Shown here piece after piece: positions 21,732-49,739 of a stretch of 64,000 nucleotides of DNA. A model generated the notes under the pieces. That model searched no databases, had not been told where the DNA came from, and saw only the letters and a list, made by a program, of their open reading frames with translations. Position 1 is the first letter of the stretch. Each line of letters opens with the position of its first letter. A program made the position numbers and the translations under genes. This DNA comes from Planctomycetota bacterium (lineage in GTDB: Bacteria > Planctomycetota > UBA1135 > UBA2386), in contig OZ245838.1 in assembly GCA_965228735.1 (NCBI GenBank), positions 5,632,001-5,696,000 of the forward strand, written 5' to 3'.

Positions 21732-22886
21732 CTAGAAGCTCTGGCGCGTGCAGCCGTTGGCGTAGGCCATGCTCGTCGCCGGGTCGATGCCGATCGACTG
21801 GTGCACGATGCTCAGGCCGCCGATGAGCGTGCGGGCGGTCGGTGAGAAGTTCCAGGCGAACGTCGCTTCGCCGCCGCTCGTGAAGCCGAGCGCGATCTGC
21901 GAGAACGACGTCGTGTCGATGCACACCGCACCTTCACCGGGAACGAACAGCGACAGCGGGATGTCGGGCGCGATCGGCTGGAACGACGCGAAGAAGAACA
22001 CGGCCGAGTTGTCCGGCATGCCGGCCATGAACCAGCGGCTCACGATGTCGTCCATGCGACCCGGGTTGAGCGGCGGGTTGGCCGCGTCCGGGTAGAGGCC
22101 CGAGCCGCCGCCGGCCATGCCGGGGGGCGCGTTGCTGGCCACTGCCGAGGTCTGGTTGGTGACGGTGCACGCGACGCCCGCAGCGCCCGGCACGATCGCC
22201 TCGATCATCCACTGGCGTGACGTCGTCGTGTAGGTCGGGCCGAGCGTCGACGACGGGACGTAGTAGCCGCTCTGCCCTTCGCCGGGCGGCCCCGACGGCT
22301 GCGCGGGCCCCGCGAGGTCGTAGCTCGTGGCCGGCGGTTGGAACACGTAGTACATCGCGTGGCACGACAGTCCGTCGTTGGGCCACGTGGTTCCGGTCGG
22401 CTGCGGCAGTCCGATGCCGAGGAAGACGTCCGCGTTGGCGGGCGTCGTCATCGGGGTCGCGAAGTTCATCGAGTACCCGAACGCGATGGCGCCGGTCGCG
22501 GTGCTCGCCGGGGTCGGGAACGGGCCGGCCATGCCCTGCGGAGCGGTCACCAGCGGGTAGTCCAGGTTGGCCGGGTCCTCGGTGTAGACCAACAGGTCGT
22601 AGGTCTCGGGCGTGTTGCCGATCTGGTCCTGGATCGTGCCGGTGATGCCGGTCACGGTGCGCATCCCGGGGCTGCTCGCGTCGACGCCCCAGCCCGCGTA
22701 GCGGTCGCTGTCCAGCCGGACGAACGCGACGCTCGGGTTGGTATTGGGCGAGGAGTTGCTACCGCGCGAGGTGAACGAGACGCCGGTGTTGAGCAGCACG
22801 CCGAGCTCGCTCTGGGCGGCGGCGACGGTGGTCAGGGCGAGCGGCGCGAGCGCCGCGAGAACGAGAGGGCAGACAGATCGGGGCAT
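21732..22886 (-). CDS. Secreted protein with a divergent copy of the shared C-terminal domain
   Basis: Signal peptide MPRSVCPL...AAA-Q; C-terminus IPLSLFVPGEGAVCID...GGLSIVHQSIGIDP...ANGC. Confidence 0.8.
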   Translation of the reverse strand: MPRSVCPLVLAALAPLALTTVAAAQSELGVLLNTGVSFTSRGSNSSPNTNPSVAFVRLDSDRYAGWGVDASSPGMRTVTGITGTIQDQIGNTPETYDLLVYTEDPANLDYPLVTAPQGMAGPFPTPASTATGAIAFGYSMNFATPMTTPANADVFLGIGLPQPTGTTWPNDGLSCHAMYYVFQPPATSYDLAGPAQPSGPPGEGQSGYYVPSSTLGPTYTTTSRQWMIEAIVPGAAGVACTVTNQTSAVASNAPPGMAGGGSGLYPDAANPPLNPGRMDDIVSRWFMAGMPDNSAVFFFASFQPIAPDIPLSLFVPGEGAVCIDTTSFSQIALGFTSGGEATFAWNFSPTARTLIGGLSIVHQSIGIDPATSMAYANGCTRQSF

Positions 22887-23078
22887 GGACTTCTCCGTCG
22901 AATACGAGTGGCCCGAGTGTAGCCGACCGAACGGGTTTCGTGTGATCGGGCCGTCCGGTTCTCGACGCCTCGAAAACCGCGGCCTCCGCGCCTCGTAATC
23001 GGTCCCCAGAAACGACGGACTCCCCGATCGCCGCGGTCGGGGAAGGTGCGGCTGCGTCATCGTGCTATCGTGGCCCGG

Positions 23079-26648: not shown

Positions 26649-27806
26649 ATGCCACACGTCCCCGTCGGGTCCGTTCTTCTCGTCCTTGTCGCCGCGACCG
26701 CTGGGAGCGCGAGGTTGAAGGCCCAATGGACCGGCGAGTGGACGATGGACATGACGGCGGGCAGCGTCGCGTTCGACCTGACGCCCAACGCCAACGACGG
26801 CGCGCTCATGAGCTTCACGGGGCCCAACCCATGGGTGCCGGGGATGTTCGGCAACGCGCTCTCGTTCGACGGGGTCGACGACTACGTGATGACGGCCAAC
26901 CAGACCGCCTCGATCTACGACGGTCTCGGGTCGCCCTACTCGGTGTGCTATTGGGTCAAAGCGCCGGCGCAGAACAACGCGTTCGTCTACGCCGAGGGCA
27001 CGATCGGCACGTCGGCGATCTTCATCTTCGGCAGCGGCCAGTTCCTGGCGGACCAGGACAAGTTTCGCACCTACCTGCGGAACGATCAGGGCGACGTGCC
27101 GCTCGTCGGAGTGTCCGACACGGTCGTCTACGACGACACGTGGCACCACGTCGCGTTCGTCGACGTCGCGGGCGACGTCAGCCTCTACATCGACGGCGTG
27201 CTCGACACGGCGACCATCGCCTACGATCCGTTGCGGCTGCCGGGCATGCCCGGTCACGGCACGTTCTCGATGAATACGGCGTCGATCGGCGCGCTGCGGC
27301 GCGGGTCGGTCTGCTGCAACATGGTCGGTCTCGTCGACGACCTGCGGCTCTACGACTTCGCGATGACCCAGACGGACGTGATGCTCGCGATGGCCAGCGT
27401 GCCGCTGATCACCGAGTCGGCGAGTGTCGGCGAGTACGGCGTCGGGTGCGGCGCGGGGCCGTTCGACGCGGTCGGTGTCGGCAGCGCGTCGCTCGGCGGC
27501 CCGGGGCTGCGTGTGGACATGCAGTCGGGACCGCCGAACGCACTCGCGTTTCAGCTCTGCAGCTTCCGGCCGATCCAGCCCGTCGACCTCGGGCAGTTCG
27601 GCTTCGCCGGTTGCACGGGCTACCCCCAGACGCCGACGTCGTTCGTCGTCGGGTTCCTGGACGCGGCGGGCAGTGGCAGCGGCCCGCTGATCGCGATCCC
27701 CAACAACCCGCTGCTGTCGTTCGTGCCGCTCAACTGTCAGGCGGCGGTGCTCGCCGGTTCGACGATCGAGTTCTCCGACGTCGTGCTCGCGGTGATGGGG
27801 CGGTAG
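26649..27806 (+). CDS. Secreted LamG/concanavalin-like protein with the shared C-terminal domain
   Basis: GMFGNALSFDGVDDYV, WHHVAFV, LYIDG, GLVDDLRLYD; C-terminus YGVGC...FGFAGC...IPNNPLL...CQAAVL. Confidence 0.9.
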   Translation: MPHVPVGSVLLVLVAATAGSARLKAQWTGEWTMDMTAGSVAFDLTPNANDGALMSFTGPNPWVPGMFGNALSFDGVDDYVMTANQTASIYDGLGSPYSVCYWVKAPAQNNAFVYAEGTIGTSAIFIFGSGQFLADQDKFRTYLRNDQGDVPLVGVSDTVVYDDTWHHVAFVDVAGDVSLYIDGVLDTATIAYDPLRLPGMPGHGTFSMNTASIGALRRGSVCCNMVGLVDDLRLYDFAMTQTDVMLAMASVPLITESASVGEYGVGCGAGPFDAVGVGSASLGGPGLRVDMQSGPPNALAFQLCSFRPIQPVDLGQFGFAGCTGYPQTPTSFVVGFLDAAGSGSGPLIAIPNNPLLSFVPLNCQAAVLAGSTIEFSDVVLAVMGR

Positions 27807-34059: not shown

Positions 34060-34779
34060 ATGTTTCGGCAACTGGACTCCGCGCGCGTCATCGAGACCGT
34101 CGAGCGTCTCCGCGACCGCATTCGGGAACGATTCCCGGACGCCAACCTCGGCCGCGTCGCCGACGATCTCGTCGGGTTGGCGCGCGCGCACGCCGAACGC
34201 TGCGCGGCGATCGCGCGGCCGGACGTGGCGCTGCGCTGCGTCTCCGTCGTGCTGCTGCTCGCCGGTGCCGGCGCGATCGCGCTGCTGTTCGGGACGCTGC
34301 GCATGCGCGTCGATGACAGCTGGACGCTGATCGATACCGTGCAGACGCTCGACTCCGGACTGTCGATGCTGTTCTTCCTCGGTGCCGGGACCGTGTTCGC
34401 GATGAGTCTCGAACTGCGCCGCAAGCGGCAGCGTTGCCTCGAGGCGCTGCACGAGGTGCGCGCCATGGCGCACATCGTCGACATGCACCAGCTCACCAAG
34501 GACCCGGATCGGCTCATGCGATCCGGCGCCGACACCCCGGCGTCGCCGAGTCGAACGCTCACGCGTTTCGAGCTCAGCCGCTATCTCGACTACTGCTCCG
34601 AGATGCTCGCGCTCATGGGCAAGGTCGCCGCGCTCTACGGCCAGTCGTTCCCGGATCCCGTCGCGCGCCAGGCCGTCGACGAGGTCGAAGAACTCACGAC
34701 GGCGCTCGCGCGCAAGGTGTGGCAGAAGATCATGATCCTCGGCGAGGTCGAGTCGGGTGTGCAGGCGGAAGAGGCGTGA
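34060..34779 (+). CDS. Hypothetical two-TM protein
   Basis: Coding-like ORF with two hydrophobic segments and motifs AHIVDMHQLTKDP, RYLDYCSEML, KVWQKIMIL. Confidence 0.85.
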   Translation: MFRQLDSARVIETVERLRDRIRERFPDANLGRVADDLVGLARAHAERCAAIARPDVALRCVSVVLLLAGAGAIALLFGTLRMRVDDSWTLIDTVQTLDSGLSMLFFLGAGTVFAMSLELRRKRQRCLEALHEVRAMAHIVDMHQLTKDPDRLMRSGADTPASPSRTLTRFELSRYLDYCSEMLALMGKVAALYGQSFPDPVARQAVDEVEELTTALARKVWQKIMILGEVESGVQAEEA

Positions 34780-34872
34780 TGCGGTCGGTCTTGCACTTCA
34801 GATCGGCAACACGCTGACCGAGCTCGCGGAGTTGCACGGCCGCCGCGCGCTGCACATCGGCACGCTGTCGCC

Positions 34873-35373
34873 CTACGGCCCGATCGTCACCACCGCGGCG
34901 TCGGAGGTGATGAACGCGCTGAGGCCGCAGCCGGCGATGCCGCACTGCGTGTGCGCCGTGACCCATTGCGCGAGGAACTGCACGCCGACGAGGTTGGCGT
35001 TGGCCGGGATCGCGATCGGATGACCGTTCTCGTAGCGCGGCAGCGAGCTGTGCTGCGGCATCGGGATCACGGTCGTCGGCGTCATGTAGCCGAGACAACC
35101 CGCGGGCTGGTAGATCAACAGGCCGGCGGGGATCACGGTGATCACCTGCTGGAAGCCGAGCACGAGGTGCGGCTGCGCGATCTGCTGCGCCGAGTTGTAG
35201 GTGTGGTTGGATCCCGAATAGGTGATCGAGAACGTCTGACCGATCCGCGGCAGGCCGACGTTGCCGATCGCTGGCGTCTGGTTCTGCAGCGTGCAGCCAG
35301 TGCCGAACGTCGAGAACGATGCCTGGCTCGGCAGGGCGACCGTCAGGAACAGTGCTGCGAGGATGCGGCGCAT
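34873..35373 (-). CDS. Secreted protein consisting only of signal peptide plus the shared C-terminal domain
   Basis: MRRILAALFLTVALPS-QASFSTFGTGC...TPAIGNVGLPRIG...PAGC...IPANANLVGVQFLAQWV...TSDAAVVTIGP. Confidence 0.85.
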   Translation of the reverse strand: MRRILAALFLTVALPSQASFSTFGTGCTLQNQTPAIGNVGLPRIGQTFSITYSGSNHTYNSAQQIAQPHLVLGFQQVITVIPAGLLIYQPAGCLGYMTPTTVIPMPQHSSLPRYENGHPIAIPANANLVGVQFLAQWVTAHTQCGIAGCGLSAFITSDAAVVTIGP

Positions 35374-35563
35374 GGTCGCCATTGGACGGCAAGGCGCGGG
35401 CGGCGTCGAGATTCCCGACGTTCACGGTGCGTCGTGGGTGCTGGTTGGCGATCCGCTCGGGTGGCGCGGAACCGCCCGTGGCAACGCCTGTTCACCGTTC
35501 TCGGCCGGGCTCGGCTCCAGTCCGTCGGGCGCGCGGTCGAAGAACCGTGGGGGATTTCCCTGT

Positions 35564-38065
35564 ATGCGAATCGGAGTCGGAGTCGTGGCCATCGGTCTGT
35601 CCGTGGTGCTCGCGGCGTGCTGGAACGGCACGCCTGGGCCCGGAGCGGACGTGGAGTATCCCGCCGTCGTGGCGGTCGAGTTCCCGGCAGCGCCCGCCGG
35701 TGACGTCGCGTTGCAGTTGACGCTCGTCGATCCGGACGAGCGTCCCGCCGACCTCCTCGTCGAGGTCTCGGCCGACGGTCGGACGTGGCGCAGTGCGCGA
35801 CTCGGCGCCGGGGCGGGAACGACGAACCTGCCGACGAGCACCGCGGGCACGGTGACGACGATCACCTGGGACTCGCTGGCCGACGTGGGCTTCCGCGATG
35901 CGCCTGATGCGCGGCTGCGCTTCACGGCGAGCACCGACGGCGTGGCAGGATCGGTGACGGAGACGGCCGTGCCGGCGCTCGCCAACCTGCGCGCGGCGGC
36001 GCTTCTGGTGCAGCACCCGATGATCCACTACGGGCCGTTCGACGCCGCGACGATCGAACTCGCCAAGCAGCACGACCTCGTCGTCATTCATCCGGCGTCG
36101 GGCGCGGTGCAGCCGCAGACGGTGCGCGAGATCCAGCTCGGCGTCGATCCGTTCGATCCGATCGACGACGTGCTCGTGCTCGCCTACATCTCGGTGGGCG
36201 AGGATCTGCGGACGGTCGGCATGACGGACGCGCAGATGCTCGCGGATCCGCGGTTCGTCGGTGACGCCAGCGGTCCGCGCATCGATCCGCGCGGTCCGAA
36301 CGCCGACGGCGGCCCGCTCGTCGGGATCGATCCGCTCGGCATCGTGACGAACGCCCCGGGCGGGCCACGCTTCGCGTCGTGGTACCTCGACGACAACTCG
36401 GTCGACAACAGTCCGAGCGACATCGGCGACGGTCTGCCGGATCGCAACGCGGGTTTCGGGGGCTGCTTCGTGAACGCGGGCGACCCAGCGTGGTTCGAGG
36501 CGCTCGACGCGATGACGATCGACGGCGTCGACGGGCAGGCCGGCATGAAGGAGCTGCTGACGCTCGACACGGGGCGCGGCTACGGCTGCGACGGCCTGTT
36601 CTTCGACACGTTCGACACCTGCGCGCCCAACTTCTACACGGACGGCAGCAGCTACAACCAGAGCGAGTTCGAGTGGACGGCGCCGGGGTTCGCGGCGTTC
36701 ACCGAACGGTGCAAGGCGCGCTACCCCGACAAGCTCGCGCTGCAGAACCGCGGGCTGTTCTTCTTCGATCCGCGATTGCCGCAGTACGCGGTGACGACGC
36801 GCGCGCACGTCGACCTCGTGCTCGTCGAGAGCTACCGCCTCGACTCCAACGCGCACGAAGGCTTCAACGCCTACTTCACGGCGGACAACAAGCACAACTA
36901 CGCGCCGAAGCTCATCGCCGAGGCGGGGCGACCCGACGGCTTCCGGATCCTCAGTCTCGGCTACGCCGAGGGGCCGGGGATCGATCACGGCACGCTGCTG
37001 GGCACGTCGACGAACGGCCTGGCGACGCTCGTCGAGGACGTCGCGGAGGCGCAGCTGATCGCGGGGTTCGCGCACTATCTCACGGACGCCGGCGTCGCGC
37101 TCGCCAATCGCTTCGCGATGGACCAGGTGACGGCCGACGAGAGCGCACCGATCTGGTCGAGCACCTACAACGACAACATCCAGCCGTGGCCGACGCCGCA
37201 CGGGGCGCCGACGCCGCGACCCGGGCTGCAGAGCGTGGTGGCCGGTGACGGCAGCGTCACGGTGCACTGGGACGTCGCGCAGGATCAGAGCGGCGCGAGC
37301 TACGCGCTCTACCTGCAGGACGGACCGTTCGACTTCCTCGCCGACCCGACGCTCGCGGGCGCGCGCCGCGTGGTGCTGACGCCCGAACTCGGCGACGGGT
37401 ACGTGAACGGGGTCGGCCCGACGGTCTACCCGTTCCAGGCCACGGTCGCCGGACTGCCGAACGGCGTGCAGCAGCATCTCTGTCTGCGTGCGTTCGACCC
37501 GCTCGGGCACGAGGAGGGCAACCGCGTGGTGCTGACCGCGACGCCGGAGAAGCCGCCGCAGATCACGATCGACGGCAGCTTCGCGGACTGGGCGGCGGTG
37601 CCCTTGCTGCTGACGGACGGCGACGACGTGCCGGACTCGGCCGGGCCGGATTGGCTCGAGGTCGCGATGCACCACGACAACGACAACGTCTACGTGCGCT
37701 TCACGTCGGCCAACTCGTTCAACCTCGACGGCTCGCCGACCTACGCCTACTCGCGGTCCCTGATCTTCTTCGATCTCGACGAGAATGCCGCCACGGGCTG
37801 GCCGATCGGTGGCATCGGCAGTGATGTCGTGCTCGCGGGAGACGTGCTCTACGCGCAGTCGAGCTCCAGCTTCAACACGGGCACGCTCGGGGCGGTCGCG
37901 GCGGCGCCGGTGCTCGCGGTCACCGAGTGCGAGATGGCGCTCCCGTGGACCATGCTCGATGCGGTCGTGCCGGGGGCGCGGAAGCTGCGCGTCGTCTGCG
38001 TCAACGACGAGGTGTTCGACTACGCGCCGGGCGCGGGCTACGTCGAGTACGACGCGCCGCGCTGA
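35564..38065 (+). CDS. Lipoprotein with GH114/PelA-like hydrolase domain, FN3-like and CBM9/DOMON-like domains
   Basis: Lipobox VLAA-C; LAYISVGED, DGLFFDTFD, QNRGLFF, VESY; VTVHW...YALY; ITIDGSFADW. Confidence 0.75.
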   Translation: MRIGVGVVAIGLSVVLAACWNGTPGPGADVEYPAVVAVEFPAAPAGDVALQLTLVDPDERPADLLVEVSADGRTWRSARLGAGAGTTNLPTSTAGTVTTITWDSLADVGFRDAPDARLRFTASTDGVAGSVTETAVPALANLRAAALLVQHPMIHYGPFDAATIELAKQHDLVVIHPASGAVQPQTVREIQLGVDPFDPIDDVLVLAYISVGEDLRTVGMTDAQMLADPRFVGDASGPRIDPRGPNADGGPLVGIDPLGIVTNAPGGPRFASWYLDDNSVDNSPSDIGDGLPDRNAGFGGCFVNAGDPAWFEALDAMTIDGVDGQAGMKELLTLDTGRGYGCDGLFFDTFDTCAPNFYTDGSSYNQSEFEWTAPGFAAFTERCKARYPDKLALQNRGLFFFDPRLPQYAVTTRAHVDLVLVESYRLDSNAHEGFNAYFTADNKHNYAPKLIAEAGRPDGFRILSLGYAEGPGIDHGTLLGTSTNGLATLVEDVAEAQLIAGFAHYLTDAGVALANRFAMDQVTADESAPIWSSTYNDNIQPWPTPHGAPTPRPGLQSVVAGDGSVTVHWDVAQDQSGASYALYLQDGPFDFLADPTLAGARRVVLTPELGDGYVNGVGPTVYPFQATVAGLPNGVQQHLCLRAFDPLGHEEGNRVVLTATPEKPPQITIDGSFADWAAVPLLLTDGDDVPDSAGPDWLEVAMHHDNDNVYVRFTSANSFNLDGSPTYAYSRSLIFFDLDENAATGWPIGGIGSDVVLAGDVLYAQSSSSFNTGTLGAVAAAPVLAVTECEMALPWTMLDAVVPGARKLRVVCVNDEVFDYAPGAGYVEYDAPR

Positions 38066-43090: not shown

Positions 43091-45952
43091 TCAGTTGCCG
43101 ACGGTGGCGCGGCCGGCGCCCGAGACCACGATGCCGAGGGCGTTCGCGGCGTCGATGACGGCCCACTGGTGGAACAGCTGCACGCCGACGAGGCCCGTCG
43201 CGTTCGGCACCGCGAAGGTGCCGGCGGCCGTGCCGCTGCCCGACGTGAAGATCAGCTGCGTCGAATCGGCCGACACGAGCAGATCACAGCCCGGCGCGTT
43301 CGGCAGCGGTGCCGGCAGCGACTGACCCTGGTAGGTCGTGTCCGACAGGCCCGTGACCAGGAACGCGCCGCTCGTGGCGACGGCATCGCTCAGCGTGACG
43401 TCGTACGAGCTGCCGAGGATCGGCAGGCCGGCGTTGCCGAGCGCCGGCGTCTCGAACGTCGGGCCACCGTTGCAGGTGACGCGCCACGACGGGTTTGCCA
43501 CGAGCTGCGACTGCGTCCACGTGGGCGTCGCCGCATCGCGCCAGAAGCCGACGCCGCCGTTGCCGCTGTTGAGCGTCGAGATGACGACGTTCTGCGCGGA
43601 GCTGTCGAGGCCGACGTAGAACGTGCCCGTCACGTTCACCGGTGCCGCGAACGTCGCGGTGTAGAAGCCGGCCGTCGGGCCGACCTGGATCGTCGTGCTC
43701 GCGACCGGGGTCGGCGACGGGGCGTTGCCGCTGCTGGCGTAGATGTGCGCGGGCGCGCTCACCGTGCCGCCGGTCGACTGGGTGAAGATGTCGAAGCTCA
43801 GGACCTGCACCGCACCCGTGTTGACGACGCGGTAGCAGTATTCGTTGTCGCGGGTCGCGCCCGAGAGCGCGCCGCCGTTGGGATTGAGCTCCGCGCAGTA
43901 GGTCGTGCCGACGACCGTGCCCGGGCAACCCTGCCCGAAGGCGGCGAACTGCGCGAACACCGGCAGCTGGCCCGTGCCGCCCGAGACCACGAGGCCGTAG
44001 TCGGCGTCGACGCCCGGCGTCTCGAGGTGGTTGTCGGCCACGACCGCGGTCGCGATGACCTCGACCGTCCAGACGCCGGCAGCCGGGTTCTGGACGAACA
44101 CGCACTCGATCGGGTTGATCCCGTCCTCGCTGCCGCCCGGCACCGACCAGTTGCCCTGCTCGAGGCCGTTGTTGCCCCAGTAGACCGTGTTGTCGGGCGC
44201 GGTGACGCGCAGCGACAGGTTGTTGATCAGCGTGATCGCGGCGGCCGGGTTCCCGGCCGGCTCGGCGTAGTGCAGCACCGTCTTGAGCGCCGTTTCACCC
44301 TGCGCGACCGTGATGTTCCACGTGCGCGTCTGACCCTGAGTCAGAACGTCCTGCTCGTCGATGATGAAGGTCCTGTCGCGCAGGTCCCACATCGTCTGCA
44401 GGTTGGGGAAGCCCCACCCGACGTGCTCGCGCCGGTTGTCGGTGCTCGCCGCGTTGAACGCGTACTGCCGCGCGCTCGCGACCTGCAGCGCCTTCAGCGT
44501 CGTGAAGTGCGGCCGGTTGCTGTGGGCGCTGCCGCCCGGGTTGCGCAGCGGGTTGCCGAAGATGCCGAAGCCCGGGTTGCTCGAGTCATCGGTGAACATC
44601 TCGATCGCGAGCGTGTTGTGGCCCGCGACGATCGGCGTTGCACCCGAAGTGCCGCCGAAGCCCGACGTCCAGTTGCCGGACGAGTAGCCGGCCGAGCCCG
44701 TGAGGTCGGACGTGCCGATGCCGTCGTAGTACGCGGACAGCGTCGGCTTGATGCGGCCGTCGGCCGCCGGACCGGTGCTGCCACTGCCGCTCCAGCTGTC
44801 GTCGAGCGGGTTGCTGTTGTTCTGGTGACGAACGCCACCGATCGAGAAGATGTTCTTCGCCCAGGCCTGCGGTCGGCTGTCCTGGTTGCCCGCGTTGCTC
44901 TGGCTCTGCGTCCACGAGATGTCGTGATCGAAGATGATGTCATCGGTCTCGGCCGAGACCGACGTGTAGAAGAACGTGCGTCCGCCGCCCCACGAGGCCG
45001 TCGTGTGGCTCACGTCGTGGATGTTCACGAGGTCGCTGACGACCTGCCAGCGCGAGCCGCTGACGCTGCCGTTGTTGGTGTAGAACTTGCCGGCGTCGGG
45101 CGCCATGCCGCGAACGGCCGGGTTGCTCGTGCCGTCGCCGAACACGATGCCCGCGGTCGCGTGGCCGTGCGACGATGCGGCACCGCCGCTGCGCACGTTG
45201 GTCACGAAGCTGTTGAAGTCCTGGTGACCGGCCTCGATGCCTTCGTAGATGTGCGTGTTGACGCCGACCCCGGTGTAGCCGCCCTGCGTTTCGACGTAGT
45301 TGCCGCCGCCCTGGATGCGGGCGTTGTCCATGTCGAACTCGTCGGGCGACCACGCGTCGATCCAGAGCACCTGGTCGAGCTGCGCCACCGCCAGCAGCTG
45401 CGCCTTGTTGAGCGTCGCGGAGAACAGGAGGCTGCCCGTGTGCTCGTCGTTCACGGTGCCGCCGAGTGCTCTGATGTGGGCCGCGAGCGCCGGCTTGTCG
45501 TTGTGCTTGTCGACGACGACCATGTTGTAGCGGGCCTGCTCGACGTCACCCTCGAGGCTGGCGATGAGCGCCGGGTCGAGGCGGTAGGCCGGGTGGTAGT
45601 GACCGACCCAGCGCACCTGCGGCAGCGCGCGCACGGGCTCGGTGCTGCTGTGGCTCATGCGCACGACGTACGCGTTGTCGGGCAGGTAGCCGTGCACCTC
45701 CACGTTGGTTTCGGCGAGGCCGTTGCGGTCGGCCTGCGTCGGCGTGCCGTCGAACTGCACGATCCAGAGGCGGCTGCTCGAGTTCGCCGTCAGCGCGGCC
45801 GGCAGCGCCGGTTCGCCCGCGAGCGGATCGAAGTTCTCGTAGCGCAGGTGCAGGCGCGACGATTCGCTCTGGTCCTGGGCGATGGCGGGAAGGGAGAAAA
45901 GGAGACCAGCGGCGCACGTGATGAGTGCGCCCGGAGTCTTGGCGTGATGCAT
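43091..45952 (-). CDS. Secreted S8 subtilase (Glu-His-Ser variant) with the shared C-terminal domain
   Basis: Signal peptide ...AIA-Q; prodomain; HIYEGIE..H, HGHATAG, SNAGN, DGRIKP, GGTSGATP; C-terminus NAPGCDLLV...VPNATGLVGVQLFHQWAVIDAANALG. Confidence 0.92.
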   Translation of the reverse strand: MHHAKTPGALITCAAGLLFSLPAIAQDQSESSRLHLRYENFDPLAGEPALPAALTANSSSRLWIVQFDGTPTQADRNGLAETNVEVHGYLPDNAYVVRMSHSSTEPVRALPQVRWVGHYHPAYRLDPALIASLEGDVEQARYNMVVVDKHNDKPALAAHIRALGGTVNDEHTGSLLFSATLNKAQLLAVAQLDQVLWIDAWSPDEFDMDNARIQGGGNYVETQGGYTGVGVNTHIYEGIEAGHQDFNSFVTNVRSGGAASSHGHATAGIVFGDGTSNPAVRGMAPDAGKFYTNNGSVSGSRWQVVSDLVNIHDVSHTTASWGGGRTFFYTSVSAETDDIIFDHDISWTQSQSNAGNQDSRPQAWAKNIFSIGGVRHQNNSNPLDDSWSGSGSTGPAADGRIKPTLSAYYDGIGTSDLTGSAGYSSGNWTSGFGGTSGATPIVAGHNTLAIEMFTDDSSNPGFGIFGNPLRNPGGSAHSNRPHFTTLKALQVASARQYAFNAASTDNRREHVGWGFPNLQTMWDLRDRTFIIDEQDVLTQGQTRTWNITVAQGETALKTVLHYAEPAGNPAAAITLINNLSLRVTAPDNTVYWGNNGLEQGNWSVPGGSEDGINPIECVFVQNPAAGVWTVEVIATAVVADNHLETPGVDADYGLVVSGGTGQLPVFAQFAAFGQGCPGTVVGTTYCAELNPNGGALSGATRDNEYCYRVVNTGAVQVLSFDIFTQSTGGTVSAPAHIYASSGNAPSPTPVASTTIQVGPTAGFYTATFAAPVNVTGTFYVGLDSSAQNVVISTLNSGNGGVGFWRDAATPTWTQSQLVANPSWRVTCNGGPTFETPALGNAGLPILGSSYDVTLSDAVATSGAFLVTGLSDTTYQGQSLPAPLPNAPGCDLLVSADSTQLIFTSGSGTAAGTFAVPNATGLVGVQLFHQWAVIDAANALGIVVSGAGRATVGN

Positions 45953-46283
45953 GTAACTCGGGGTGGGGCAGCAGCGAGGGGAGGCGGCACAATCCTACCG
46001 CTCCGACGCGGAGTGCAACCCCGGAAGATCACCGCTAGCGGTCTGGCGAAAGTGCCAATGCTCAGTGCCGAATGACCCGCCCCGACCGCGACCCGCCCAT
46101 CGCAGGCGGCGATCGGGGGGCTCGATCGCTCGAGCCCAGGTTCGTTCGGATCGGATGGGAAACTCGTCGCGCGCGGCGGCCAAACGGCCACACCGGTCAC
46201 GAACTCTGCTCAACTGGCCCGCTGCCCCATCCGGTAGTCGGCCGTTTCCTCACATCACCACACCACTCCTCGAGACCCAATCC

Positions 46284-49200
46284 ATGCGACTCGTCTTCGC
46301 GCGCTCCGCTGCTGGAGCTCTCTGCTTTCTGACTCCCGTGCTTGCCCAGAACGGTGACCGGGTCGTCGGCGAGGTGTTCGATTCGACCGGCGGCGGTCAA
46401 GTACGCACGCCGGCCGTCGACCACCGCCTGATGCTCGGCTACGGCGTCTTCGATCCGCTCGCCGGAGCCCCGCCGGTGTCGGCCGAACTGTCGGCCCGCG
46501 CGGACGTCGGCCTCTTCATCGTTCAGTTCGGTTACGCGTGCATCGACGCGGATCGTCGAGCGTTGCGCGACGCGGGCGCGAAGCTCGTGTCGTCGCTGCC
46601 GCACAACGCGCTGATCGTGCGCATGGGGGCGGAGCAGATGGCCGCCGTTGCGCGCACCGACGGCGTGCGCTGGGTGGGACCGTACCACCCGGCCTACCGC
46701 CTCGAAGGCGATCTGCTGACCGCGATCGCGGCCGCCGCGCCGATGCCGGTGCGGGGCTACAACCTGGTCATGGCGGACAAGGTCAACGACAAGGCCGCGC
46801 TGGCGCGCAAGATCGCTGCGGTAGGAGGCAAGGTCACGGATCGCCACGACCGCGGCCTGCTGATGACCGCCGAACTCTCGAAGGAGCAGCTCATCGCGGT
46901 GGCGCGCTTCGACGAGGTCCTCTGGATCGATCGCGAGACGGCGCCCGAGCTCGACATGGACAACGCCCGCATCGTGCAGGGCAGCAACTACATCGAGACC
47001 GCTGCTGGCTACACGGGTGCAGGTCTCGGCAGCGGCCGCATTCGCGGTCACGTCTACGAAGGCGTCGAGTTCAACCATCCCGACTTCACCGTCCCGATGA
47101 CGAACGTTCGTAGCGGCGGCCAGGCGCAGGCTCACGGTCACTGCACCGCTGGCATCGTGTTCGGCAACGGCACGAGCGCGCCGCAGGCTCGTGGGCATGC
47201 CCCGGGTGCGCAGGGCTTCTACACGACCTTCACGACCGTCACCGCCGGCTTCTCGCGCAACATGGTCATCGACGACGTCGTCAACGTGCACAACTGCCTG
47301 TTCACGACCGCGTCGTGGGGCAATGCGCGCACGACGGTGTACAACTCGATCTCGGCGGACGCGGACGACATCGTCTTCGACCATCGCATCCCGTGGACGC
47401 AGAGCCAGTCCAACTCCGGCAACCAGGAGAGTCGGCCGCAGGCGTGGGCGAAGAACGTCTTCTCGATCGGCGGCATGCGCCACAACGACAACGCCGATCC
47501 GACCGATGACTTCTGGGGCGGCGGCGCCTCGACCGGTCCGGCGGCCGACGGCCGCATCAAGCCGGACCTCTGCAACTTCTACGACGACGTGTGGACGTCG
47601 GACCTCACGGGCTCGGCCGGCTACGCCAGCGGCAACTCGTTCCAGAGCTTCGGCGGCACATCGGCCGCGACGCCGATCACCGCCGGTCTGAACGCGCTCG
47701 CGATCGAGATGTACACGGACCACATCCTGTGCAACCCGCCGCGCGTTCATGGTGGCTCGGACTTCGAGAACCGTCCGTACGCGCAGACGCTCAAGGCTCT
47801 GATGATCGCCAACGCGTCGCTATATCCGTGGGGTTCGGGGGTCGGCCAGTCGATCCGCAGCGTCCAGGGCTGGGGCTACGGCAACGTCCGCACGATCTAC
47901 GACAACCGGGCGCGAATGATGATCATCCCGGAGGACAAGCCCATCCAGCAGGGACAGACGCACACGTACTTCATCGACGTCGCGCCCGGCACGCCGATCC
48001 TCAAGGTCTGCATGAGCTACCTCGATCCGGCGGGTTCGCCGGCCGCTGCACTCGCGCGGGTCAACGACCTCACGCTCGAGGTCACGCAACCGAACGGCGT
48101 CGACTACTGGGGCAACGCCGGTCTGCGGACCAGCAACCAGTCGTCGAGTGCCGGTGGCGCGGACAACGTCGACACCGTCGAGTGCGTCATTCGCGCGAAT
48201 CCGATGCCGGGCATGTGGCGGATCGACGTCACCGCGCCGCTGATCGCGCAGGATGCGCACGTCGCGACGGCGGCGGCCGACGCGACCTACGCTCTCGTCG
48301 CCGCCGGCGGCGCGCGGACCTACGACAGCTGTGCCCGCACGATCCCGGACGACTCGCCGGCCTCCGGCACCGTGAACGTGATCCCGTTCGGCTCGACGAC
48401 GCCGGCGCTTCTGAGCGGCACGTTCGCGACCAACAACGGAGGTTCGGTCGGCGGCGCGGTCTACTTCGACCTCGCTGTCACCAACGACCTCTTCTGGAAC
48501 GGCATCGATCTCAACACGGGCATCGGCGCGGGCACGAACATCCAGCTCGACGTCTACACCCGCATCGGCACGCACGTCGGCAACGAGGGCAGCATGGCCG
48601 GCTGGACGGCGCGCACCGCCGGTCTCGGCGTGGCGGCGGCTTCGGACTCGCCGAGCAAGGTCGACTTCAACGCGCCGCTCTCCATGAACGGCGGCACGAC
48701 CTACGGCGTCGCGATCGTGGCGCGCAACTTCGACCACGACTACACGAACGGCGCGAACGTCTTCGCCGACGCCAACCTTACGATGACGACGGGCTCGGCC
48801 GCGAACGTGCCGTTCACCGGGAGCCCGTTCACGCCGCGTTCCGCGAACCTGAACATCCGTTACCGGCCGGATCAGAGCGCCTGGCACAATCAGCGCTACC
48901 AGACGGTGTTGCGCTGTCAGGATCTCGGTCCGGCCGGCTCGATCACGGGGCTGTCGTTCGCGCCAACGGTGACGACCAGGCACCTGAATCGTCGGTTGCG
49001 GATCCGGATGGTGCACCGGCCAGCCGGTTACGAACTGTCGAACACGTTCGCGACCAACATCGCGGGCGGACAGGACGTGCTCGACGAACTCGACTACGTG
49101 TGGCACACGACGGCCGACGTCTGGAACGAGATCGGGCTGACGAGTCCGTTCGCCTACAACGGCACGGACGACGTCGTGATCGAGATCCTGGCGCGCGGCA

Positions 49201-49739
49201 ACCACAACCAGAGCAGCGGCTCGATCGATGGCTTCCATCGCGGCGCGACGACACCGCGCATCTGGGCCGAAGGTTGGCCGTCGACGTCGGTGCCGACCGT
49301 GGCTTCCGGCTCGGACACGAATGGCACGAAGATCCGCGTCGAGTTCGCGTGCCCGAACGGCGGCGCCTTCGGCAGCAGTTGCGGGCCGCTGCGCGCGCTG
49401 CCGTTCAGCACGCCGCTGGCCGGCACGTCGTTCTGGTACGACGTCTACGACGCCGTGCCGAACAGCGCTGCGATCGTGCAGCTCGGTCTGAATCAGACGG
49501 GCGTTTCGCTGACCGGTTCGGGATTCACGAACTGCTTCCAGTGGAACGACCCGATCGCGTCGGTGTTCTACCTGACGTCGGGCGCCGGCTTCGCGACGCA
49601 CGTGTTGAACGTGCCGCCGGGCACGATGTTCGACGGCCTGGTCATCTACGGCCACTGGTACAATCTCGATCCGGCGCAGCCGGGCGGACTCACCGCGTCG
49701 AACTACATCCGCAGCATCGTCGGTAGCCAGAACCCGTAG
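46284..49739 (+). CDS. Secreted S8 subtilase paralog (Glu-His-Ser variant) with extra beta domains and the shared C-terminal domain
   Basis: Signal peptide ...VLA-Q; HVYEGVE..HPDF, HGHCTAG, GGTSAATP; C-terminus FGSSC...GFTNC...VPPG....GLVIYGHWYNLDP...GLTASN. Confidence 0.92.
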   Translation: MRLVFARSAAGALCFLTPVLAQNGDRVVGEVFDSTGGGQVRTPAVDHRLMLGYGVFDPLAGAPPVSAELSARADVGLFIVQFGYACIDADRRALRDAGAKLVSSLPHNALIVRMGAEQMAAVARTDGVRWVGPYHPAYRLEGDLLTAIAAAAPMPVRGYNLVMADKVNDKAALARKIAAVGGKVTDRHDRGLLMTAELSKEQLIAVARFDEVLWIDRETAPELDMDNARIVQGSNYIETAAGYTGAGLGSGRIRGHVYEGVEFNHPDFTVPMTNVRSGGQAQAHGHCTAGIVFGNGTSAPQARGHAPGAQGFYTTFTTVTAGFSRNMVIDDVVNVHNCLFTTASWGNARTTVYNSISADADDIVFDHRIPWTQSQSNSGNQESRPQAWAKNVFSIGGMRHNDNADPTDDFWGGGASTGPAADGRIKPDLCNFYDDVWTSDLTGSAGYASGNSFQSFGGTSAATPITAGLNALAIEMYTDHILCNPPRVHGGSDFENRPYAQTLKALMIANASLYPWGSGVGQSIRSVQGWGYGNVRTIYDNRARMMIIPEDKPIQQGQTHTYFIDVAPGTPILKVCMSYLDPAGSPAAALARVNDLTLEVTQPNGVDYWGNAGLRTSNQSSSAGGADNVDTVECVIRANPMPGMWRIDVTAPLIAQDAHVATAAADATYALVAAGGARTYDSCARTIPDDSPASGTVNVIPFGSTTPALLSGTFATNNGGSVGGAVYFDLAVTNDLFWNGIDLNTGIGAGTNIQLDVYTRIGTHVGNEGSMAGWTARTAGLGVAAASDSPSKVDFNAPLSMNGGTTYGVAIVARNFDHDYTNGANVFADANLTMTTGSAANVPFTGSPFTPRSANLNIRYRPDQSAWHNQRYQTVLRCQDLGPAGSITGLSFAPTVTTRHLNRRLRIRMVHRPAGYELSNTFATNIAGGQDVLDELDYVWHTTADVWNEIGLTSPFAYNGTDDVVIEILARGNHNQSSGSIDGFHRGATTPRIWAEGWPSTSVPTVASGSDTNGTKIRVEFACPNGGAFGSSCGPLRALPFSTPLAGTSFWYDVYDAVPNSAAIVQLGLNQTGVSLTGSGFTNCFQWNDPIASVFYLTSGAGFATHVLNVPPGTMFDGLVIYGHWYNLDPAQPGGLTASNYIRSIVGSQNP

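Follow-up and report, generated by a model that had tools for sequence, protein, structure and literature searches.

The tail domains of the Bacteroidota T9SS are described as folded Ig domains that are nonetheless cleaved off (PMC4804311), so independent folding alone does not exclude that such a domain serves as a sorting tag. The Bacteroidetes Q-rule (Gln after the signal peptide) is described as phylum-specific (PMC5837995). A planctomycete cohesin–dockerin assembly has been proposed as the ‘planctosome’ (PMC6461901), bacterial S-layers often use Ig folds (10.1101/2024.05.28.596244), and in single-domain antibodies a disulfide frequently links CDR1 and CDR3 (PMC11432006). We report here a gene, within the 64,000-nucleotide stretch of planctomycete DNA that we analysed (the window), whose product consists of a predicted signal peptide and one predicted Ig-like domain. 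This domain marks the tails of ~250 proteins of one genome, yet has no family in Pfam, NCBIfam, or PHROGs. Literature searches that covered few subscription papers turned up no account of this domain, nor of sets of nanobody-like paralogues in bacteria, and the passages searched in 10.1101/817700 do not mention such a domain.

The gene, its product and the shared tail domain

Residues are numbered from the second Met (ATG at 35373, three codons in), since homologues begin like the second Met. The gene has the following parts.

34873..35382, minus strand: complete ORF, 169 aa if translation starts at the first ATG and 166 aa if it starts at 35373
35326..35382, minus strand: predicted Sec signal peptide sequence, with a helix at residues 2–16 of low pLDDT
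34876..35325, minus strand: mature single domain, Gln17–Pro166, a predicted Ig/FN3-like beta-sandwich homologous to the tail domain of ~250 proteins in its own genome
35293..35295, minus strand: Cys27, with Cys93 as predicted partner

The 169-aa translation is as the earlier note had described it, a signal peptide plus the shared domain only. What follows the signal peptide and Gln is the shared domain end to end (profile–profile comparison with cargo-linked copies: probability 99.9, E 1.3e-33, 138 columns). The domain boundaries that the note drew from the gene are supported. The mature protein measures ~150 aa, as compared to ~130–138 aa for cargo-linked copies. Signal-peptide cleavage would fall just before Gln17, which is kept in at least 90% of 23 homologues.

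The gene has no same-strand neighbour; a convergent gene ends at 34779, and a divergent, lipoprotein-like gene starts near 35573. The latter (35573–38065, plus strand; ~830 aa) has a lipoprotein-like start but lacks the shared domain, and its protein has no Pfam family at E ≤ 0.001, a weak Firmicu-CTERM row lying below the cut-off. Contigs from all four of four public runs, which may include the source of this DNA, match positions 34600–35700 with zero differences or gaps. GC3 of the ORF is 0.92. No sigma-70 promoter or terminator match was found at the gene, nor was one expected by chance, and no Shine–Dalgarno-like run was found upstream, which is weak evidence in this phylum. The protein matches no Pfam, NCBIfam, or PHROGs family, no Pfam match better than E 0.008 was found among 100 aligned relatives, and a profile search of PDB sequences gave no relative better than E 0.086. 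Its ESM Atlas neighbours at 0.94–0.97 are unnamed Planctomycetota clusters of 141–168 aa; named clusters score <0.9.

AlphaFold2 returned a pLDDT of 91.7 for the precursor and, for the mature domain alone (100 sequences), a pLDDT of 97.9 and a pTM of 0.91, so that the independent folding proposed in the earlier note is what the model predicts. The model is all beta and includes a long F–G hairpin with its turn between Cys144 and Cys149 (strand letters are taken from DSSP order and the VH alignment). Structure comparison against 48,161 chains gave a best Z of 7.6 (rmsd 2.5, 82 residues) and none at Z ≥ 8. The best matches listed are Ig and FN3 domains at Z 6.3–7.6, and antibody VH domains can be aligned over the full span of model residues 14–149 (Z up to 7.0, rmsd 3.4–4.0, ~105 residues). 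Given Ig and FN3 matches below Z 8 together with the end-to-end VH alignment, the predicted fold is a generic Ig-like sandwich.

In the source genome (G000; 7.19 Mb, one contig) iterative profiles retrieve the domain in 243 ORFs at E ≤ 0.001, with 0 hits in a reversed-sequence control, and the union of four profiles raises the number of carriers to 276. Placement is mostly C-terminal, with ≤30 residues after the domain in 224 of 243 carriers, and each carrier has one copy (0/243 have two). In 7–8 proteins the domain instead lies directly behind the signal peptide, with cargo after it. Nine carriers lie inside the window, including two S8 proteases, one LamG-like protein, and two Kelch proteins. 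Examples of both placements are as follows.

26649..27806, plus strand: LamG-like (PF13385) protein ending in the shared domain
43091..45952, minus strand: S8 protease ending in the shared domain, an example of a cargo-linked carrier
45963..49739, plus strand: second S8 protease ending in the shared domain
G000:C1:248232-252511, 537832-540006, 1298250-1301165, 2351346-2352389, 4698122-4699630, 5562208-5563893, 7109646-7111160: carriers with the domain at the N-terminus

Another exported-looking protein in the window (21732–22910, minus strand) was missed by the profiles; its C-terminal 140 residues align weakly with the domain, and it is possibly a divergent variant. Domain genes are mildly clustered in the genome, with 72 of 275 gaps <5 kb as compared to 48 expected at random.

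Beyond this genome the domain is present in 37 of 41 relatives, including 24/24 genomes of the same family, and in 31 of 151 genomes sampled across the phylum; named homologues are labelled Planctomycetota. A weak signal-peptide heuristic scores 224/276 carriers as compared to 911/2018 background proteins, and a stricter but crude signal-peptide plus Gln motif 154/260 as compared to 352/2018. Many carriers have Gln immediately after the predicted signal peptide (at 35323–35325 for the gene in the window), which recalls the Bacteroidetes Q-rule. The domain is low in charge (~4–5% D+E). Core residues Pro42, Gly45, Gly73, Pro123, Gly130, and Gln136 are kept in all domain forms. Cys27 and Cys93 would form a family-wide disulfide; of 190 cargo-linked copies, 75% retain Cys27 and 84% retain Cys93, and in 117 database stand-alones the figure is 97% for each.

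Cargo-less homologues and their origin

A search restricted to proteins of 91–291 aa yielded 22 homologues of 148–177 aa at 45–67% identity; a separate search of longer proteins, which is weak evidence, gave no match at E ≤ 0.001 in 657 candidates. When length was left open, a profile search yielded 317 clusters at E ≤ 0.001, of which 90 reached E ≤ 1e-10. Among these best 90 clusters, 69 measure 150–200 aa (64 of them with a signal-peptide-like start plus Gln, by a heuristic), 17 are shorter, and 4 are longer. At 17 of 18 loci the mature length is 146–154 aa, the remaining locus being cut by a contig end. Cargo-less homologues are conserved, and the case that the earlier note had set against its own reading, homologues that are always longer and a gene that is a truncated remnant, is not what we find. 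In a control with the opposite bias, cargo-type domains searched against short proteins gave 44 matches, of which the filter flagged 1; that match and a second one that we inspected look like cargo-type fragments.

The cargo-less gene is neither unique in its genome nor a core gene. Nine of the 17 short domain-bearing ORFs in the genome consist of a signal peptide plus the domain (judged by eye; one is borderline at E 0.001), and the other eight look like fragments or mis-started ORFs. Close orthologues (orthologue profile, E < 1e-40) occur in 6 of 41 relatives, the source genome included; none was found in a genome of the same genus (G001, 90% complete) or in two nearly closed genomes (G013 and G022). 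None of the 17 other loci has a neighbour gene in common with the window, while an upstream M28 peptidase gene is common to 4 of those 17 among themselves. An orthologue-group search of viral contigs found no relative of the group among 38 candidate stretches. A single strong match in most genomes of family f9 was considered as a ‘core component’ and rejected, being a cargo protein of 570–600 aa instead. This protein (L048, L051, L052, L053, and L057; 49–86% mutual identity) combines Asp-rich repeats with the tail domain, and the source genome has no full-length counterpart of it.

On a tree built from 95 loop-free columns, 68 of 76 stand-alones fall into one clade together with 1 of 174 cargo-linked copies (FastTree support 0.946), with 10 label changes as compared to a mean of 65 in 200 shuffles; the tree is unrooted, its cargo-linked rows come from the source genome only, and its database stand-alones were gathered with the query's profile. 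Read from these sequences, the single clade represents a long-lived cargo-less lineage. The source genome's own stand-alones in the tree (n = 8) divide into 4 inside the main clade and 4 on long branches among cargo-linked copies, and, given where the latter four sit, cargo was probably lost on more than one occasion.

Tandem stand-alone genes occur at 4 of 17 loci, in three genomes, the loci having been chosen as promising: three genes each in L058 and L061, two in L059, and two in L060, of which the second ends early. The triplets are arranged head to tail.

L061:1603-4387 (G020): head-to-tail stand-alone triplet, FG loops nearly identical, BC and DE loops differing
L058:3481-5194 (G021): head-to-tail stand-alone triplet

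Simple dN/dS relative to the window gene lies at 0.5–1.0 for 11 of 12 pairs, which probably reflects the limit that a GC3 near 0.92 sets on synonymous change; it is ~0.2 for the two pairs that GC3 bias masks least. We therefore used a test at four-fold sites in place of simple dN/dS. Across 18 orthologous loci, the BC loop has a four-fold-site difference of 0.52, close to the saturation value of 0.56, and an amino acid identity of 0.66, the pairs not being independent.

Loops of stand-alone and cargo-linked copies

The loops and flap of the stand-alone domain are these.

35173..35214, minus strand: BC loop, residues 54–67, exceeding that of cargo-linked copies by ~7 residues; a candidate for ligand binding
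35098..35154, minus strand: CD flap, residues 74–92, ending at Cys93; present in all domain forms
35026..35061, minus strand: DE loop, residues 105–116, variable even among orthologues; Cys-paired with BC in other stand-alones
34906..34962, minus strand: FG hairpin, residues 138–156, with Cys144-x4-Cys149; ~5 residues longer, replacing the Asp-Pro/Ala turn of cargo-linked copies; candidate binding loop

The earlier note had seen the C-x4-C loop as the only extra element. C144 and C149 are indeed present, and invariant in 23 of 23 aligned homologues, but the loop is not alone: profile alignment with cargo-linked copies opens gaps of 7 residues at BC and 4 at DE in addition to 5 at FG. The median Gly45–Gly73 segment is 27 residues in 117 database stand-alones and 20 in 190 cargo-linked copies, and the median Gln136–Ser157 segment is 20 and 15, respectively; the database set came from a search with the query group's own profile and is therefore biased towards long loops. 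An unbiased test within the genome finds a BC segment of at least 25 residues in 6 of 9 stand-alones as compared to 9 of 210 C-terminal copies (Fisher p 2.6e-6), the other 3 of 9 having short BC loops, and finds no difference in FG length (median 15 in both, p 0.36). FG lengthening holds for the main clade only. Three of eight N-terminal copies, taken as a control, also score a long BC segment, but these segments show a shifted anchor; one cargo-linked relative (P0086) is likewise long-looped.

The FG Cys pair is a subgroup trait, present in 57 of 117 database stand-alones, 2 of 190 cargo-linked copies, and 1 of 8 own stand-alones. The Asp-Pro/Ala turn after strand F has a different distribution (79/190 cargo-linked and 6/8 N-terminal copies, as compared to 4/117 database and 0/9 own stand-alones). 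With different loops and this turn absent (4/117 as compared to 79/190), the stand-alone form does not prove what the domain does on cargo proteins.

Mean identity among 22 orthologues is 0.68 in BC and 0.63 in FG, level with the core strands, and 0.32 in DE, as compared to 0.18, 0.13, and 0.13 among 78 other stand-alones. This within-group conservation is partly circular, the loops having contributed to the similarity by which the orthologues were chosen. When sequences are binned on framework identity alone, BC and FG go from below to above the identity of the CD flap, and the contrast is modest. In composition, the BC and FG loops of stand-alones hold 12.7% aromatic residues and 3.3% Cys, the corresponding values for cargo-linked copies being 4.9% and 0.5%. 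Of 80 de-replicated stand-alones, 8 have a single Cys in one loop paired by a single Cys in another (5 BC–FG, 3 BC–DE), as compared to 1.6 expected and reached in 0 of 10000 permutations; P0118, probably frameshifted, is left out of this count (9/81 with it). The excess persists at stricter de-replication (4/52, p 0.0007; 2/28, p 0.009), and such pairs occur in 0 of 190 cargo-linked copies. Cross-loop Cys pairing implies that the BC, DE, and FG loops touch, and together with the topology it places these loops, by our inference, on one pole opposite the conserved turns. Two related stand-alones of the genome (G000:C1:6807602-6808300 and 5507602-5508504, both minus strand) carry a single Cys in each of the BC and DE loops and lack Cys at both positions where the family usually has it.

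Among tandem paralogues (5 pairs, not independent), pN/pS is 0.28/0.52 in BC, 0.42/0.64 in DE, 0.09/0.18 in FG, and 0.12/0.38 in the core. BC and DE are the fastest-changing regions, and with pN < pS in every region we see no positive, antibody-like diversifying selection in these pairs. A blastn search of the genome found no second copy of the loop DNA that could be a template for diversification. A diversity-generating retroelement was considered, since the genome has 13 RT matches, and rejected for want of a template copy of the loops. Nine of these 13 matches on G000:C1 have identical scores and frames of 541–549 aa, and are probably one multi-copy mobile element.

Candidate functions and comparison with known systems

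We favour, with about even confidence, the reading that the gene product is a small exported binding protein whose core docks in the envelope and whose BC and FG loops replace cargo, a reading built on sequence comparison and the predicted model. The protein would be exported by Sec and cleaved before Gln17, fold with two disulfides, dock in the envelope via the conserved turns at the pole opposite the loops, by the same route as cargo-linked copies, and bind a subfamily-specific ligand through BC, FG, and perhaps DE; the lengthened BC and FG loops would be its built-in cargo. The ligand might be a glycan or protein on another cell or particle. We read the loops as a binding site because they are longer where cargo is lacking, subfamily-specific, rich in aromatics, and joined by cross-loop Cys pairs. 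The gene is probably a member of an old and diverse cargo-less Ig group in which the loops, rather than a fused domain, carry the function. We suggest more tentatively, as a possibility that we hold in some doubt, that a Planctomycetota lineage has converted the domain that docks its secretome into a set of nanobody-like single-domain binders encoded in the genome, several per genome, with their own disulfide-pinned loops, displayed by the docking route of ~250 enzymes and lectins and renewed by tandem duplication, gain, and loss.

Another reading, which we consider unlikely, makes the cargo-less copy an adaptor, plug, or decoy that occupies or regulates the docking site of the receptor or export machine serving the ~250 tail proteins. 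It accords with core residues that are conserved no less well than in cargo-linked copies (0.96–1.0 in the 117 database stand-alones, whose sampling is biased), and with a domain present in 24/24 same-family genomes. It fits poorly with close orthologues in only 6 of 41 relatives and none found in the 90%-complete genome of the same genus, with 0 of 17 other loci having a neighbour in common with the window, and with the absence of the FG Asp-Pro/Ala turn typical of cargo-linked copies; moreover, a generic competitor would not need subfamily-specific loops.

We think it improbable that the protein is a structural subunit that makes up a coat, S-layer, or filament and takes in cargo-linked copies, although the low charge of the domain (~4–5% D+E) and its single copy per protein (0/243 with two) would suit such a role. 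A coat subunit should accompany cargo-linked copies everywhere, and the patchy distribution of close orthologues (only 6/41 relatives) makes it unlikely; the source genome has nine divergent stand-alones of several origins, and the lack of a Shine–Dalgarno-like run upstream also speaks, weakly in this phylum, against it. The coat or S-layer subunit put forward in the earlier note thus finds little room beside these orthologue counts, the 0/17 common neighbours, and the several unrelated cargo-less forms of one genome. A homodimer prediction scored 0.06 (mark 0.42), which counts neither for nor against self-assembly.

Nor do we expect, except at a low probability, a soluble carrier of small molecules or lipids of the ML/GM2-activator kind, with its ligand between the sheets and long loops that are merely structural. 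Foldseek does place GM2-activator chains at the top, three of them at E ≤ 0.001 (best 3.2e-4), with NPC2 and mite allergen chains lower in its list, but the alignments have TM 0.33–0.38 and rmsd 10–12 A (the best match TM 0.33, rmsd 12.1). GM2-activator chains are absent from the best 50 rows of either VIA list, which is not decisive against the family. None of 100 members matches PF02221, or any Pfam family better than E 0.008, and the profile finds no solved relative better than E 0.086.

Lastly, a functionless, truncated remnant of a cargo-bearing gene is hardly credible: broken domain fragments do exist in the genome (8/17 short ORFs) and four own stand-alones among cargo-linked copies probably arose via cargo loss, but full-length conservation refutes this reading (22 homologues of 148–177 aa at 45–67% identity; mature length 146–154 aa in 17/18 loci; and, weakly, no longer relative at E ≤ 0.001 among 657 candidates), and GC3 of 0.92 and dN/dS ~0.2 in the two least GC3-masked pairs also stand against it.

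The natural cargo-less copies give exact construct boundaries for a 150-residue protein that could be both a structure target and a receptor bait. Natural variation also sets the conserved core apart from a free pole where long loops are tolerated, the comparison needed for telling docking from binding. If the loops bind ligands, these proteins would form a bacterial family of small binders, each a single domain, that has converged on the loop architecture of antibodies.

Among known systems, Ig-type S-layer proteins are likewise exported beta-sandwich proteins; the present protein differs in its single small domain, patchy orthologue, many divergent paralogues, and lack of separate lattice and anchor domains. 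The ML family (GM2 activator, NPC2, and mite group 2 allergens; PF02221) similarly comprises exported single beta-sandwiches of similar size with disulfides, but superposes poorly (TM 0.33–0.38, rmsd 10–12 A) and shows no sequence match. As in cohesin–dockerin systems, one small terminal module sits on many exported planctomycete enzymes and binding proteins and can be read as a docking tag; the fold is different, however, and a tandem-domain scaffold is absent here (0/243 multi-copy). Dockerin (PF00404) and cohesin (PF00963) have 0 matches in the source genome, with controls positive in 2 of 14 genomes each.

The T9SS C-terminal domain of Bacteroidota (TIGR04183 / PF18962) is likewise an Ig-like sandwich that terminates many signal-peptide proteins of unrelated cargo, one copy on each, and PorU residues 1054–1157, a T9SS tail, match our model at Z 6.6 (rmsd 3.4, 98 residues), a score that generic Ig domains equal. 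At ~130 aa the present domain is the longer of the two, its Cys pair is conserved, and it is found at the N-terminus (7–8 proteins) or alone (9) as well. PorV (NF033709) has 0 matches in the source genome (93% complete), with its control found in Bacteroides thetaiotaomicron; genome-wide searches for the tail TIGR04183 and for SprA (TIGR04189) also gave 0 matches, as did their controls. With no family match, PorV not found, and a position that is not strictly terminal, the domain resembles T9SS tails in logic and fold but is not a member. An exosortase-like match was seen in the same genome at G000:C1:1004657-1005223, plus strand (TIGR02602, E 6e-27, below the cut-off).

VHH and VNAR domains differ from this domain in sequence (9–15% identity, which implies no homology) and in having the canonical B–F disulfide that it lacks, and antibodies differ in that neither a diversifying mechanism nor positive selection was found on the stand-alone loops. 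The likeness lies in a lone Ig-like sandwich with long, aromatic-rich BC and FG loops and cross-loop Cys, comparable to CDR1–CDR3 disulfides. FN3 monobody scaffolds are a further parallel, being again lone Ig-like sandwiches with BC and FG loops. What defines a single-domain binder, an Ig domain with BC and FG loops that are long, variable, and set on one pole, is seen here as well, the common pole being predicted from topology and Cys pairing.
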